From contig JAMPGX010000008.1 in assembly GCA_023663725.1 (NCBI GenBank), positions 16,477 to 80,476 on the forward strand: a stretch of 64,000 nt of DNA, written 5' to 3'. Below are positions 29,535-53,147 of this stretch, one piece after another; positions within the stretch are counted from its first letter, which is position 1, and each line of letters opens with the position of its first letter. The notes under the pieces are model-generated. The model did not search any database. It had not been told where the DNA came from and saw only the letters and a list, made by a program, of their open reading frames with translations. Made by a program: the position numbers and the translations under genes. Source of the DNA: a bacterium (lineage in GTDB: Bacteria; Bacillota; Clostridia; Lachnospirales; Lachnospiraceae).

Positions 29535-31706
29535 ATGACAAATTACACGAGACCGGACAGGGCGTCCCTGAGAGCGGTGATTGCCTCCGCAGAGCGGGCG
29601 GATGGACAGTATCAATATGTGATGAATGTGGCTGGAGACTGCCGGAAGCAGATCCTGCACAACTATCAGGCGGAAAAAAAGGAGGCTGCAAATGAGCTGC
29701 TCAGGCAGATAGACGTGGAGGATTTGAACCGTCAAAAACAGGGCATCAGGGTGTCCCTGCTGCGGAGCGCTCATCTGGAGAATATCTATCAGGTATTGTG
29801 CGCGGGTCCGCGTCGTCTGATAAACATTAACGGCATCGGGGAGGCCGGGGCGGACAAAATCATGAGGATCGCTCGGATGTATCAGCAGGAGGCACAGAAA
29901 AAGGCCCGCATTCGGCTGGACGACGTGGAGAGGAATCCACGCCAGGCGGCCATTCTGCAAGGACTCTATCTGCTGCTGGAATTGCAGCAGGACTTCAAGC
30001 TGGCGGGCAGCGTCCAGGAGAAATGTCATCTTTCCGTGCAGGACAAGCTCCAGGGCACCCGACAACTACAGAGTAGTCTGGGATGGATCTTTAAGAGCGC
30101 CCGACAGAAGCAACAGGCGTTGGATGCCTATGTGCAACTGAGAACGCTGACTGGACAGGGTTATGTCAATATGGCGGCGAAGCTTCAGGGACACACCTGG
30201 CAGACGCTGGCACAGGATACGGGCGCTCTGAGCCGTCAGGCGTTTGCGCGCAACACCGCTCCTTTTTATGCCGCGCTGGAGGAGGTTACAGGAGAGAGAC
30301 TGGAGGAGAAGGCTTACTCCGGCGGTCTGTCCGAGGAATATGTGCAGAGCATCGAGACGCTGGATCTGGACCTGTCCCTGATGCGCTCCACCCTGCGACA
30401 GTATCAGCTTTTCGGCGTCAAATATATCCTGCAGAACCGACGGGTGCTGCTGGGGGACGAGATGGGACTGGGCAAGACCATCCAGGCCATCGCTTGCATG
30501 GCGCATCTGAAAGCGCAGGGCAAGACACATTTCCTGGTGGTTTGTCCCGTGAGTGTTATGGTCAACTGGAGCCGTGAGGTCAGCAATCACAGCACTCAGC
30601 AGGCACTGGAGATCCACGGGCTTGACCGCGGGGAGGAGTACGACCAGTGGGGACAGGAAGGCGGTGTCGGTATCACTACCTATGAGACGATCACGCGGCT
30701 GGAGCTGGGCGAGGAGCAGATTGATCTGCTGGTGGTGGACGAGGCTCACTATGTCAAGAACCCCAAGGCCCAGAGGACGCAGGCGTTGCAGCGACTGGCG
30801 CAGATTGCGGAGTACGTGCTGTTTATGACCGGCACCCCGCTGGAGAACCGGGTGGAGGAGATGATCTTCCTGGTGAGTATGTTAAACGGGGAAGTGGCGC
30901 GGAACCTGGAGCGGGTGGCCGCGATCTCCACGGCTGACAGTTTTCGAGAGGCGGCCAGCGAGGTATATCTGCGCCGCATCCGCGAGGATGTGCTGACAGA
31001 GCTGCCGGAGAAGGAGGAGAAACAGGAATGGTGCGCCATGAACCGCCAGGAGAGGGAGGCGTATTATCATTCCCTGCTGGAGGGCAACTATATGGCGGTG
31101 CGCCAGGTGTCCTGGAATGTGGAGGATATCAAAGATTCCTCTAAGGCGGCGCGTCTGCTGGAGCTCTGTGAGACTGCCAGGGAGAACGGCAGGCGGGTTA
31201 TCATTTTTTCCTTTTTCCTGCATACTATCCAGACTGTGATGCAGCTCCTGGGCGATCGGTGCTACGGCCCGATCAGCGGCGGCGTGTCGGGGGCAAAGCG
31301 GCAGGAGATATTGGACGCGTTTGGAGAGAGCGCGCCGGGCAGCGTACTGGTGAGTCAGATCATCGCCGGAGGCACTGGCATCAATGTGCAGGCGGCCAGC
31401 GTCGTGATCCTCTGCGAGCCGCAGTGGAAGCCCTCCACGGAGGAGCAGGCCATCTCCAGAGCCTATCGCATGGGACAGCAGCAGAAGGTCATGGTACACA
31501 GGCTTCTCTCGCAGAACAGCATCGACGAGAGGATGCTGGAGATCCTGCAGGGAAAGGCGGATATCTTCGAGCGTTTCGCCCAGGAATCCGTGGCTGGCGA
31601 GCGGATGAAGGAGATGAGCGAGGAGACCGCCATGAAGCTGATCATTCGGGCGGAGCTGGAGCGGCTGCAGGCCCAGGAGAACTTGGGAGAGGCAGCCACG
31701 GAATAG
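29535..31706 (+). CDS. SNF2-family helicase/ATPase with N-terminal helix-hairpin-helix
   Basis: LGDEMGLGKT, DEAH, TGTPLEN, GGTGINVQAA, QAISRAYRMGQ; INGIGEAGA HhH-like motif. Confidence 0.9.
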   Translation: MTNYTRPDRASLRAVIASAERADGQYQYVMNVAGDCRKQILHNYQAEKKEAANELLRQIDVEDLNRQKQGIRVSLLRSAHLENIYQVLCAGPRRLININGIGEAGADKIMRIARMYQQEAQKKARIRLDDVERNPRQAAILQGLYLLLELQQDFKLAGSVQEKCHLSVQDKLQGTRQLQSSLGWIFKSARQKQQALDAYVQLRTLTGQGYVNMAAKLQGHTWQTLAQDTGALSRQAFARNTAPFYAALEEVTGERLEEKAYSGGLSEEYVQSIETLDLDLSLMRSTLRQYQLFGVKYILQNRRVLLGDEMGLGKTIQAIACMAHLKAQGKTHFLVVCPVSVMVNWSREVSNHSTQQALEIHGLDRGEEYDQWGQEGGVGITTYETITRLELGEEQIDLLVVDEAHYVKNPKAQRTQALQRLAQIAEYVLFMTGTPLENRVEEMIFLVSMLNGEVARNLERVAAISTADSFREAASEVYLRRIREDVLTELPEKEEKQEWCAMNRQEREAYYHSLLEGNYMAVRQVSWNVEDIKDSSKAARLLELCETARENGRRVIIFSFFLHTIQTVMQLLGDRCYGPISGGVSGAKRQEILDAFGESAPGSVLVSQIIAGGTGINVQAASVVILCEPQWKPSTEEQAISRAYRMGQQQKVMVHRLLSQNSIDERMLEILQGKADIFERFAQESVAGERMKEMSEETAMKLIIRAELERLQAQENLGEAATE

Positions 31707-43481: not shown

Positions 43482-44177
43482 ATGGGATTTGTAATAGCAG
43501 GAGATACGCACGGGACGCTTGATATCGGAAAAGTGACAGCATATTTTGCCGGACGGGAAGAGGAATATACGAAAGAGGATTATCTGATTATATGCGGCGA
43601 TGTAGGTGTCTGCGGTTTTTCAGCGTCAGAGGAAGCGCAAACCCGAAACATATTGCGCGGGTTGCCGGTCACCACTCTTTTCATAGATGGGAACCATGAA
43701 AATTTTGAACTGTTAAATTCATATGGCGTGGATATGTGGAATGGCGGCAAGGTACATTTTATTGAGGACGATATAATCCATCTGATGAGGGGTCAGGTGT
43801 TTTGCATCGACGGAATAAAATTCTTTACCTTTGGCGGGGCCTACAGTATTGACAAGATGTATAGAAGCGAAGGGATTTCGTGGTTTCCGGAGGAAACTCC
43901 CTCCAGAGCAGAATATGAGGAGGGCTGGAGCAATCTGGAAAAGTCGGGCTTTCAGGTTGACTATATCCTAACGCACACCGGGCCGAGAGAGATTGTCGGG
44001 CAGATGGGATATGGAGAATTGTCTGACGAGGAAGTTGAATTGCGACGATTCCTGCAGCGGGTAGCGGATCACACAGAATTTACGGCATGGTACTTTGGGC
44101 ATTTTCATGAGGATACGGCAGTGGAGGAGATATTTTTTTGTCTATATGATGAGTTGGTTGCGATAAATGAACCTTAA
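43482..44177 (+). CDS. Calcineurin-like metallophosphoesterase
   Basis: GDTHG, CGD, DGNHE, THT, GHFH motifs. Confidence 0.92.
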   Translation: MGFVIAGDTHGTLDIGKVTAYFAGREEEYTKEDYLIICGDVGVCGFSASEEAQTRNILRGLPVTTLFIDGNHENFELLNSYGVDMWNGGKVHFIEDDIIHLMRGQVFCIDGIKFFTFGGAYSIDKMYRSEGISWFPEETPSRAEYEEGWSNLEKSGFQVDYILTHTGPREIVGQMGYGELSDEEVELRRFLQRVADHTEFTAWYFGHFHEDTAVEEIFFCLYDELVAINEP

Positions 44178-50204: not shown

Positions 50205-50238
50205 AGAGATAATTCAGTTGGAAAGGAAGTGGATTTTG

Positions 50239-50781
50239 ATGGGACTGAGCGTGATGGGGATCGGCAGTATGCCTGATAATGCAAGCTACGGCTTATACGG
50301 TTCTGTCAGCGGCGCAGCGGGTACAGGAGCGGCGAAGCGGATGCTTCCAGTTGGCGCGGCGGACGCTGTCGGGGCAGCGGGCGGCTCCAGAGGAGTGGAG
50401 GACAGCCGTGCGGCCAAGCGCGTAGGCAAAGCGGAGTGCCAGACCTGCAAGTCGAGAAAATATAAGGATGGTTCCGATGAGATGGTCAGCTTCAAGTCGG
50501 CGACGCACCTTTCTCCCCAGGCGGCGGGGTCGGCGGTGATGGCCCACGAGCAGGAACATGTCTCTAACGCATACAAAAAGGCTGCGCTGAATGACGGCAA
50601 GGTGTTACAGGCCAGTGTGCAGCTGCATATGGGTGTGTGTCCGGAGTGCGGGCGCAGCTATGTGGCGGGCGGAACCACCAGTACCAAGATTCAGTACAAC
50701 GAGGACAATCCATATGAGAAGAATGCCAAGTCCCTTCAGGCGGAGGCGTTCAAGGGCAACAATGTGGATGTGGCCGTATAG
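50239..50781 (+). CDS. SprA-related putative zinc protein
   Basis: CQTC, AHEQEH (HExxH), CPEC; GAAAGGA RBS; family call is tentative. Confidence 0.65.
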   Translation: MGLSVMGIGSMPDNASYGLYGSVSGAAGTGAAKRMLPVGAADAVGAAGGSRGVEDSRAAKRVGKAECQTCKSRKYKDGSDEMVSFKSATHLSPQAAGSAVMAHEQEHVSNAYKKAALNDGKVLQASVQLHMGVCPECGRSYVAGGTTSTKIQYNEDNPYEKNAKSLQAEAFKGNNVDVAV

Positions 50782-50965
50782 TGCGATTGCGTTATGATGT
50801 ATAAGCTGAGGAGGGCTTATATGTGACAGAAATGTTGCATATAGGCCCTATTTGTTAAAATGCATGAACAATTTCTAAATTTTCATTAAGATTTCCGTGA
50901 ATTGCTTGTGGCAAAAAATGGAATGTGATAAAATGCGCATAGTAAATGAAATTGGAGGAATGTCA

Positions 50966-52117
50966 ATGAAAAACAGAATGTATTATTTATTGTTTTTGGT
51001 TTACTTGTTTGTAGTCGGCTTTGTGCTGGTGGTGAACGGGGTATTTACCGGACAGGTCTCGTCCATGAGCAACCTGGTGATCAACATGATTTTCCTGTTG
51101 CTGATCGGCATCATGTTCCTGATCTCCTTTGTCAGCTTTTCCAGACTCAACCGTATGACGGACAGGCTGACGGCTGTGGCGGATCAGATTTACAAGGCGT
51201 ATGATGACGGAGACCACAAGCTGTGGGAGACTTATCGCACGAAGAGCAAGGTGTTTGGGGATGATATACTGGACGAGGCTTTTTACCGTTATCAGAAAAA
51301 GATGAACAGCTTTCAGACCAAGCATGGACTGATTGGGAGCTGCGATATCGAGGACTATATCCACGAGGAGCTCTTGAATCAGGCTGGCATGAATTATTAC
51401 AATTCCGCTATTTCGGGAACTATGACAGGTCTGGGAATCCTGGGTACGTTTATCGGACTGTCCATCGGCCTGGGATCTTTTAATGGCAATGACATCTACA
51501 CGATCTCAGATAATGTGGGACCTCTGCTCAGCGGCATGAAGGTGGCTTTCCACACCTCTGTATATGGTATCTTGTTCTCCCTGGTATTCCAGTTTGCCCA
51601 CCGCGGCGTGATGGCGGACGCATATGACAAGCTGCAGGACTTTCTGGCGGCCTACCGCGAATGCGTGGAGCCAGTGGTCAACAACACGGATGACAATACC
51701 AAGGCAATGCTGGTCTATCAGGCGAATATGGCCAACTCCATGAAGCAGATGACGGAGCTGCTGAAGGGTGAAGCGAGGCAGCAGGCGGAAAGTCTGGACA
51801 GGATGGTACAGCAATTTACCGAGAAGCTGCAGCAGGCGCTGGGAACCGATTTCGACCGGCTGGGCGCATCCTTACAGAGAGCGTACAGTGCCCAGGAGGT
51901 CTATGCCGACAACTACCGCACGATGGCGGACACCACGCAGGCTTTGCTACAGTCCAGCCTCTCTCTGCAAAAGACATTGGAGGAGACGATGGGGCGGCAG
52001 GAGGCTATGGCCAGACAGCTCAAAGAGCAGTCCGAGAGGATTGACGCCACCTGCAATACGATTAACGAGGAGATCAGCAACCAGCTCTACACCTATGCGC
52101 AGACGCATGAGCTGTAG
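50966..52117 (+). CDS. MotA/TolQ/ExbB-fold protein with helical tail, ZorA-like
   Basis: TGLGILGTFIGL...GMKVAFHTS..GILFS channel motif followed by a long amphipathic tail. Confidence 0.8.
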   Translation: MKNRMYYLLFLVYLFVVGFVLVVNGVFTGQVSSMSNLVINMIFLLLIGIMFLISFVSFSRLNRMTDRLTAVADQIYKAYDDGDHKLWETYRTKSKVFGDDILDEAFYRYQKKMNSFQTKHGLIGSCDIEDYIHEELLNQAGMNYYNSAISGTMTGLGILGTFIGLSIGLGSFNGNDIYTISDNVGPLLSGMKVAFHTSVYGILFSLVFQFAHRGVMADAYDKLQDFLAAYRECVEPVVNNTDDNTKAMLVYQANMANSMKQMTELLKGEARQQAESLDRMVQQFTEKLQQALGTDFDRLGASLQRAYSAQEVYADNYRTMADTTQALLQSSLSLQKTLEETMGRQEAMARQLKEQSERIDATCNTINEEISNQLYTYAQTHEL

Positions 52118-52196
52118 AATATAAATGGCGTTCTCCTGCGTAGAAGGTCGTGCGATTGCAGACAGGCTATTATAGAGAGAGGAAGTGAAGTGAGAC

Positions 52197-53147
52197 TTGA
52201 CAGGTAAGAGACAAAAAGGAGAAAGATTTTCGGAGCCGAGCTACTGGCAATCCTATTCGGATATGATGGCTGCCCTTCTGTTGATCTTTGTTTTGATCAT
52301 TGCTATTACGCTGGCAATCTATAAACAGAAGACGACAGATCTGGAAAAGACACAGATGGAGCTGAATGCGGCCAAGCAGAAGCTCGACCTGGCCTCGGAG
52401 GAGCTGGATTTGGCCAGGATCGACCTGGAAAACTACAGGAATGAGATAGAGGCATCCAAGCATGATCTGGAGGATTCGCTGCTGAAGCTGCAGGAGGCCT
52501 ATGATGCCGCAGCTTTGACCAAGGAGGAGTTGGCGGCGGCCTATCTGGAGATTGATGAGGCGAGAGGGGAACTGGAATCCACGCGGAGCCAGCTGCAGGA
52601 TATCGTGGGCGTCAGGACAGATATCATAGGGGAGCTGCAATCCAAATTTAACAATTCCAATATGAAGGTTGACGCACAGAACGGTTCTATCAGCTTTTCC
52701 TCGGATGTACTGTTCCAGTTTGGCAGCGCCAACCTGACAAATGCAAGCAAGGCTACGCTGACAGAGATCATTCCCATGTATCTGGACGTACTTTTGCAGG
52801 ATCAGTACCGCGGTTATATTGCGGAGATCATAATCGAGGGACACACGGATACAGATGGCAGCTACAAGCACAATATGGATCTGTCCTCGGAACGCGCCAG
52901 CTCTGTCGCCAGATATATTTTAGATTCGGACAACGGACTGAGCCCGCAGAAGATCGAACAGCTACAATCCATGTTGACGATCAACGGACGTTCTTACAGC
53001 AGTCCGATCTATGTGGCAGGTACCGGAGAGATCGATATGGCGGCATCCAGGCGAGTGGAGATCAAATTCCGTCTCAAGGAGGATGAGCTGATTCAGAAGA
53101 TTACCGAGATACTTGGACAGTCAGGCGGTGCAGCTCAGAGTCCGTAG
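52197..53147 (+). CDS. MotB/OmpA-family protein with coiled-coil stalk, ZorB-like
   Basis: YWQSYSDMMAALLLIF TM with conserved Asp; EGHTD, N..LS..RA..V, SRRVEIK. Confidence 0.82.
   Translation: MTGKRQKGERFSEPSYWQSYSDMMAALLLIFVLIIAITLAIYKQKTTDLEKTQMELNAAKQKLDLASEELDLARIDLENYRNEIEASKHDLEDSLLKLQEAYDAAALTKEELAAAYLEIDEARGELESTRSQLQDIVGVRTDIIGELQSKFNNSNMKVDAQNGSISFSSDVLFQFGSANLTNASKATLTEIIPMYLDVLLQDQYRGYIAEIIIEGHTDTDGSYKHNMDLSSERASSVARYILDSDNGLSPQKIEQLQSMLTINGRSYSSPIYVAGTGEIDMAASRRVEIKFRLKEDELIQKITEILGQSGGAAQSP

Follow-up and report, generated by a model that had tools for sequence, protein, structure and literature searches.

Within a 64,000-nucleotide (nt) stretch of DNA from a gut Lachnospiraceae bacterium (GCA_023663725.1, contig JAMPGX010000008.1; hereafter the window, whose coordinates are used throughout unless stated otherwise), two adjoining genes, here called A and B, encode a ZorA/ZorB-type pair. 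We read the pair as a proton-driven motor of ZorAB type, presumably of A5B2 composition, which belongs to a distinct, effector-less and mainly Lachnospiraceae lineage and whose likeliest role is wall-membrane surveillance or mechanical coupling; to this reading as a whole we give about an even chance. The same phylum carries ordinary zorABCD and zorABE operons with an unstalked ZorB, and beside them stands this conserved lineage, which has no effectors and a shorter tail on A and has gained a rigid stalk on B.

The family assignment was consistent across profile, structure and tree comparisons. An earlier note, made from the letters of the window, had described A as a MotA-like channel with a helical tail and B as a MotB-like chain with an Asp-bearing transmembrane helix and an OmpA domain, and had placed the pair with ZorAB rather than flagellar MotAB; PADLOC, solved-structure and Foldseek matches bore this out. 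The top PADLOC model for A was ZorA2 (4e-20, with 19 ZorA models matched in all), and A scored 22.7 bits against Pfam MotA_ExbB (PF01618; cut-off 22.9) as a protein and 23.6 bits in a six-frame genome search. B matched PADLOC ZorB1 at 2e-67 and Pfam OmpA at 7e-15, and flagellar MotB, MotS and MotD models at 1e-11 or weaker. Both proteins fell far under the curated cut-offs of the NCBIfam Zor models (A, 63.8 versus 100 bits; B, 93.8 versus 400 bits), and orthologues of A bear the precomputed Pfam label PF28082, ZorA-like_t1. Searched by sequence against all solved structures, A recovered only ZorA chains at E ≤ 1 (8vvn, 8qyd and variants, 8vvi), and the best match of B was E. coli ZorB (EcZorB; 8qyd_F, 1.4e-17). 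AlphaFold (AF2) monomer models, with predicted local distance difference test (pLDDT) scores of 73 for A and 77 for B, were searched against the PDB with Foldseek, which ranked ZorA first for A (E 2e-6), followed by ExbB/TolQ at ~1e-2 and flagellar MotA at 0.13, and placed ZorB chains on top for B (8vvi first, then 8vvn and 8qyd). The only other MotA_ExbB gene of the genome is a canonical motA, paired with motB on contig C12 about 9 kb from fliG, and in our trees these flagellar proteins sat on very long branches separate from the pair. Grouping with flagellar stators or Tol/Exb systems, the outcome that the note had set against its own proposal, was seen neither in the structure matches and Foldseek rankings nor in the trees. 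The pair is of ZorA/ZorB type by sequence and fold, and MotAB, ExbBD and TolQR are far worse matches. For A, the fold matches to ZorA, ExbB and TolQ favour a place in the superfamily of 5:2 ion-driven rotary motors (MotAB, ExbBD, TolQR, ZorAB, GldLM). In a plasmid collection, tblastn with A gave no match, and every match to B at E ≤ 1e-8 was a ZorB1, a ZorB2 or a generic OmpA protein.

The pair and its signals comprise the following features, with protein lengths in amino acids (aa):

50812–50849, plus strand: terminator-like hairpin of 17 pairs followed by a T-rich tail, downstream of a 187-aa open reading frame (ORF); from a consensus scan only
50966–52117, plus strand: gene A, ZorA-type channel/rotor subunit, 383 aa; from PADLOC, structure-sequence matches and Foldseek
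50972–51151, plus strand: two N-terminal hydrophobic helices of A (about residues 3–62); from hydropathy, AF2 helices 5–23 and 34–80, and conservation
51392–51586, plus strand: pore helices of A (residues 143–207), its most conserved part, holding I158, T161 and S198; from alignment to 8qyh
51671–52114, plus strand: short cytoplasmic helical tail of A (residues 236–383); from AF2 helices 241–267 and 271–382
52176–52186, plus strand: purine-rich ribosome-binding stretch GAGAGAGGAAG before the TTG of B; read from the sequence
52197–53147, plus strand: gene B, ZorB-type stator subunit, 316 aa, TTG start; from PADLOC, Pfam OmpA and structure matches
52245–52328, plus strand: transmembrane helix of B (residues 17–44) with Asp22 (codon 52260–52262); from alignment to EcZorB
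52329–52613, plus strand: stalk of B (residues 45–139), heptad coiled coil; from the AF2 helix, hydrophobic period and heptad length steps
52614–53096, plus strand: OmpA-type peptidoglycan-binding domain of B (residues 140–300); from Pfam, alignment and Foldseek

The stalk of B carries most of the argument. The earlier note had proposed an added coiled coil of about 100 aa in ZorB, and this held up: residues 45–139 are helical in the AF2 model, whereas canonical ZorB has 11–29 residues at this position. In the model of B a first helix extends from the membrane segment as far as residue 104, a second covers residues 109–150, and the OmpA fold follows. The alignment-averaged hydrophobic period of the stalk is 3.49 residues, and its two parts add almost perfectly in phase over residues 45–140, which argues for one continuous heptad coiled coil of ~96 residues that would be ~14 nm long if straight and could plausibly span a thick wall. 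As a measure of stalk length we took the residues between Asp22 and the invariant Gly138 in 78 orthologues; this distance was 101 residues in eight, 108 in 38, 115 in 19, 122 in nine, 129 in two and 136 in two, and all six values, hence 78 of 78 orthologues, equal 3 modulo 7. A motif-based recount, independent of the alignment, gave the same remainder in 76 of 76. The insertions and deletions (indels) lie at several sites of the stalk, tandem ELNAAQL heptads among them. For independent events of arbitrary length, the chance that all five steps in length would be multiples of seven is about one in 17,000. Steps of whole heptads imply that the angular register of the membrane Asp relative to the wall-binding domain is kept while the length of the stalk drifts. 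The columns between membrane helix and domain hold 11–29 residues in every effector-linked B aligned, Klebsiella ZorB1 and E. coli ZorB2 included, and 81–130 in every effector-less Lachnospiraceae B (95 in the window).

The tail of A departs from canonical ZorA in the opposite direction, with ~150 residues versus ~500 in E. coli ZorA; the effector-linked ZorA proteins that we sampled have 446–729 aa versus the 383 aa of A. In 63 of 80 orthologues the tail has 145 residues, and the rare classes of 134 and 156 residues each differ from it by 11. These 11-residue steps, together with a hydrophobic period of 3.57–3.60 rather than 3.5, suggest that the tail forms a helix bundle that is not heptad-based. 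In the A tree the short-tail group (support 100/100) is nested among long-tail orphans, so the short tail is a derived state.

Residues with assigned roles in E. coli ZorA (EcZorA) and EcZorB, namely the ion filter, the essential Asp and the wall-binding site (Hu et al. 2024, PMC11946911), were mapped onto the pair by alignment. Asp22 of B aligns with the essential Asp26 of EcZorB and occurs in 90% or more of the orthologues aligned. I158, T161 and S198 of A align with I144, the ion-filter T147 and S184 of EcZorA and are invariant in 33 aligned relatives, and H225, N226, L229 and R233 of B align with the wall-binding Tyr151, N152, L155 and R159 of EcZorB, the last three being invariant. The periplasmic lock residues of the E. 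coli proteins (ZorA P163/E164, ZorB R49/R52) have no counterpart in the pair; B residues 42–56, strongly conserved just outside the membrane, might form a plug. The ratio of nonsynonymous to synonymous substitution rates (dN/dS) was 0.04–0.11 for A and B against close orthologues and about 0.1 for the A tail, ratios that are approximate because dS (1.2–1.9) is close to saturation. The pair is under strong purifying selection, and its composition is native, GC content and GC at third codon positions (GC3) matching both the genome and the adjoining genes.

No Zorya effector accompanies the pair, as the earlier note had stated. Effector searches covered the whole genome, which is 96% complete. 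ZorC was absent from it by Pfam EH_Signature, NCBIfam ZorC and PADLOC ZorC1 (PDLC00622); the PADLOC model recovered its positive control at 230 bits, and the NCBIfam model was weak on Bacillota ZorC in the positive control. Nor did the genome contain ZorE, DUF3348 (ZorF) or DUF2894 (ZorG). ZorD models found only the helicase core of generic SNF2 proteins, matches that also occurred in 10–11 of 14 control genomes, and tblastn of the genome with Bacillota ZorC, ZorD and ZorE proteins likewise returned no effector. The best ZorD-model match, at 326 bits and over the helicase core alone, was to an SNF2 helicase encoded on contig C2. We considered this protein as an unlinked effector and rejected it: it occurs in 12 of 101 genus genomes, nine that carry the pair and three that lack it, and is missing from 39 pair carriers. 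A second SNF2-type helicase ORF of 727 aa lies in the window at about 30340–31630 (C48:46812–48104), ~20 kb upstream of the pair, and weakly matches ZorD models over the helicase core only, at 52–74 bits, as a generic SNF2 protein and not ZorD.

The neighbourhood is equally free of effectors in relatives. We scanned at least 80 loci, one genome per species, in which A is 47–83% identical and always a full-length short-tail form. A and B adjoin in 78 of the 79 loci with a readable following gene; they are all that the loci share, with no third gene conserved across the 80 and no Zorya effector gene adjacent. Six more distant stalked pairs (L010–L013, L139 and L140) again have only A and B in common, so that effector genes conserved in relatives, which the earlier note had named as the finding that would count against an effector-less system, were seen in neither set. 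Recurrent neighbours were the copper ATPase gene copA with CsoR, ClpB, a LUD-domain protein, a LysM protein, BMC shell proteins with EutP, MgsA, thiolase, M23 peptidase, and ABC and MATE transporters; their recurrence is local synteny of ordinary chromosomal genes. In the window itself the pair is flanked by genes for a sigma factor, IleRS, a DUF2383-like ORF, the 187-aa ORF, monogalactosyldiacylglycerol (MGDG) synthase, an LPG_synthase_TM protein, a sugar-phosphate-isomerase-like protein and an EF-G/NYN fusion, none of which matched a Zorya effector model.

The pair is accessory, not core. It occurs once per genome in 47 of 100 other sampled species of the genus and in 29 of 53 high-quality genomes, the window genome included. 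Beyond the genus, a single-sequence search at E ≤ 1e-10 found it in five of 150 other genera of the family, as one short-tail and four long-tail forms, and a sample of the class had it in one of 12 Lachnospiraceae. A profile search of 1.8 billion cluster representatives returned 460 relatives at E ≤ 1e-30; among the best 150, about ten have the short length of ~370–400 aa and most have 450–860 aa. In the A tree, 21 effector-less Lachnospiraceae sequences form one clade, supported at 96/90 when the proximal tail columns are included and set apart from the effector-linked ZorAB sampled. The closest public-genome loci are labelled Acetatifactor or Lachnospiraceae, and Acetatifactor muris DSM 23669 (locus L060) is a cultured carrier. 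Judged by taxonomy, the host would be a single-membrane organism, a class in which Zorya is reported to be under-represented (PMC11946911).

Ordinary Zorya operons of the same phylum provide the comparison. Among 400 genomes sampled across the phylum, nine others had a ZorA-like gene, eight of them in four-gene zorABCD operons (L116–L123) in which an A of 446–706 aa and a B of 228–245 aa are followed by ZorC and ZorD; five were verified with PADLOC (ZorD up to 1864 bits), and three more have the same gene order and sizes. The ZorD reading frame of L122 has only 276 aa and may be truncated. The class sample added one type II zorABE operon (L143, B of 246 aa) and two further effector-less stalked pairs, one of them outside Lachnospiraceae. 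Stalk and effector loss coincide: in all nine effector-linked loci of the two samples (eight zorABCD, one zorABE) B is unstalked, with 228–246 aa, and all stalked Lachnospiraceae pairs are without effectors.

A separate ZorAB-like clade occurs in other Clostridia families (L144–L149; six of 398 sampled genomes), with an A of ~480–515 aa and a stalked B of 310–342 aa. A third gene of 306–329 aa (~324), whose N-terminus looks like the TPR type, is conserved in five of these six loci, the sixth stopping at a contig end; the window genome has no homologue of it.

How might such a pair work? We propose that two B chains would pair as a parallel coiled coil of ~14 nm, which would keep the wall-binding domains anchored in peptidoglycan and fix their angle relative to the transmembrane Asp. 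Tethering of the stator to the wall would then be permanent, unlike the damage-only contact proposed for canonical Zorya, whose ZorB has no linker. Protons passing Asp22 would turn the A ring together with its cytoplasmic helical bundle of 17–20 nm, the tail acting as the output. The role could be, for example, to sense a change in wall-membrane spacing or damage to the wall and to act through unlinked host partners.

Several points weigh against this reading. It is from homology that we take the 5:2 stoichiometry, the parallel pairing of the two stalks, binding to the wall and rotation, and the closest characterised relatives are all anti-phage systems. The AF2 model of B has a low-confidence break at residues 105–108 and, taken by itself, is compatible with a helical hairpin. 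Support for the orphan clade falls to a moderate 70/77 on motor columns alone, and the B tree, with stalk columns omitted, gives the same grouping at weak support (18/64). No partner for the A tail was found. Finally, such a patchy distribution is what defence genes typically show, and it speaks against general housekeeping.

The strongest competitor, which we regard as possible although less probable than wall-membrane surveillance, is a minimal anti-phage system that protects alone, for instance by draining the proton gradient on a wall breach as a form of abortive infection, or that triggers an unlinked or uncatalogued effector. Family relationship to Zorya and the defence-like patchiness lean our judgement this way, and one related locus has Wadjet genes 5 kb off. 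Neighbour families that recur within three genes speak mostly otherwise: about five of 75 match any PADLOC model at 1e-10 (the few matches include mad2, mad3, DolB and PDC-M37B) and some 70 are not defence-like, and the native base composition counts against this explanation as well. In published work, canonical ZorAB fails to protect when its effectors are missing, defence is lost when the tail is truncated (PMC11946911, PMC8565338), and no depolarisation of cells was seen with canonical Zorya I or II (PMC11890865). No ZorC, ZorD, ZorE, ZorF or ZorG was found anywhere in the genome, and the best candidate for an unlinked effector, the contig C2 helicase, is present in just nine of 48 pair-positive genus genomes (window genome included). 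The ordinary genomic context, the clade-wide loss of effectors, the inactivity of ZorAB alone or with a truncated tail and the lack of depolarisation by canonical Zorya turn us away from classical defence, and we do not think that the pair is a nuclease-based defence system of the classical Zorya kind.

A Ton/Tol-like energiser, in which force would be sent outward through the B stalk to a wall or surface machine (secretion, pili or S-layer), is rather improbable. Other 5:2 motors have long, rigid extracytoplasmic force transducers, which the B stalk resembles, and some related loci adjoin genes for wall enzymes (M23 peptidase, a LysM protein, polysaccharide deacetylase, LytR_cpsA_psr). However, the domain at the end of the stalk is of the peptidoglycan-binding OmpA type and not a TolR/ExbD-type or partner-binding head; no neighbour is conserved; and by fold ExbB/TolQ resemble A far less than ZorA does.

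As an alternative or auxiliary flagellar stator, the pair would suit a largely flagellated genus (FliG_C match in 86 of 101 genomes), and some bacteria do have several stator sets. The genome nevertheless has its canonical motA/motB near fliG; A has the ZorA fold and a tail, with MotA far down the fold ranking, and B matches ZorB1 at 2e-67 against 1e-11 or weaker for MotB-type models. Six pair-positive genomes have no FliG match and 44 FliG-positive genomes have no pair, and we consider a flagellar role very unlikely. Least probable of all is a type I Zorya operon in decay after loss of zorCD, because, although canonical zorABCD occurs in the same phylum, the low dN/dS extends over both genes, tail included, the ion-path and wall-binding residues are conserved, and at least 80 species-level loci share, as derived features of the clade, the lack of effectors, the stalk and the tail length.

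One candidate for a tail partner was tried and rejected. A 317-aa protein encoded outside the window (contig C14:3709–4662, minus strand; L128) carries an XRE-type HTH_3 domain at its N-terminus and a FliG_C-like domain (E 1e-10) at its C-terminus, an unusual fusion of a DNA-binding domain with a rotor/stator-contact domain. Second, weaker FliG_C matches occur in 23 of 101 genus genomes, 20 of which carry the pair. Homologues of the fusion at family level (four genomes: G100, G105, G132 and G148) all come without the pair, and the pair-carrying genome G026 has no homologue, so we ascribe the co-occurrence to shared ancestry within the genus. On the same contig (L128:6888–8360), a 490-aa TIR_2 and DUF6273 protein adjoins a Sel1-repeat protein; the two may be a defence-type gene pair.

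Further observations concern the start sites and the genes around the pair. The hairpin at 50812–50849 separates A and B, as their own transcription unit, from the upstream 187-aa ORF; TGATAAAAT at 50926–50934, read by eye, resembles an extended −10 element. The ATG of A stands 6 nt past GGAGGA (50954–50959), its MKN start is shared by orthologues, and a conserved NGVFTG loop links its two N-terminal helices. B must begin at TTG, because this is the first start codon after the in-frame stop and the conserved SYWQSYSD motif with Asp22 is present only in the N-terminal extension that it opens. The public call for the closest B orthologue (L019:2282–3148, GCA_014804645.1) has 288 aa and begins downstream of the Asp-bearing N-terminus; its start is probably mis-annotated, the true one not being ATG. 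The 187-aa ORF (50218–50781), which the earlier note had called SprA-like, lost that label, as it matches no Pfam or NCBIfam model; it has an HEQEH motif and CxxC pairs, immediately precedes the pair in 11 of 76 loci and has another genomic context in pair-negative species. Comparison of empty sites through this gene in pair-negative species of the genus found synteny lost and no clean insertion or deletion site. A 231-aa ORF at 43482–44177 has no Pfam match and resembles the PADLOC candidate family PDC-S10 (E 1.7e-8).

Taken one step further, these data raise the tentative idea, which we would not yet favour, that ZorAB-type motors have a second, defence-independent function: in single-membrane gut Clostridia, a two-gene proton motor fixed permanently to the wall would serve as a heptad-tuned mechanical ruler or sensor of the wall-membrane gap that signals to host factors through a short rotating tail. 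Canonical Zorya could in that case be a specialised member of a wider family of envelope-monitoring motors. To our knowledge, Zorya is the sole 5:2 motor family linked to immunity. In the literature that we searched on ZorA-like and ZorAB-like proteins and orphan Zorya, neither the lineage nor a phenotype for it is described. The present analysis adds the rule that the stalk changes only by heptads, a residue map, estimates of selection, counts of where the pair occurs and a comparison with canonical Zorya operons of the same phylum. The published activation model has the ZorB wall-binding domain contact the wall only after envelope perturbation or damage, and it cannot hold unchanged for the stalked lineage, where a ZorB-type domain is already on a stalk. 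The pair is thereby a natural experiment on motor gating and on the role of the tail, and the heptad-only length rule is a simple falsifiable handle.

Among known systems, ExbBD/TolQR are distantly alike in the membrane core of A (Foldseek E ~1e-2), but ExbD and TolR lack the OmpA-type domain that B has, and the pair comes with no TonB/TolA-like partner and no conserved third gene. MotAB/MotPS belong to the same superfamily, likewise combining a channel subunit with an Asp-bearing, OmpA-anchored subunit, and MotB too has a linker between helix and domain; they differ in cytoplasmic architecture and have no tail, and the genome's own MotAB is very distant and lies in a flagellar region. Type II Zorya (Sulfuricurvum kujiense, 8VVI; E. 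coli plasmid pQnrS1_005237, locus L125) gave the top PADLOC likeness for A and the top Foldseek likeness for B, yet the genome has no ZorE, ZorB2 is an unstalked protein of 235 aa, and ZorA2 falls outside the orphan clade in the A tree. Type I Zorya (EcZorAB, 8QYD; Shewanella sp. ANA-3, 8VVN; PMC11946911, PMC11890865) is the best sequence and fold match for both subunits. Unlike it, the pair is without zorC and zorD, has not kept the lock residues and has a tail of ~150 rather than ~500 residues, the long ZorA tail reported for all Zorya subtypes being absent from A; and whereas canonical ZorB has its domain fused to the membrane helix with no linker (PMC11946911), B has a stalk of 95 residues. 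What the pair shares with type I ZorAB is the Asp of B (D22/D26), the Thr and Ser of A (T161/S198 versus T147/S184), an OmpA-type domain that keeps the binding-site N, L and R, and the C-terminal helical tail of A.

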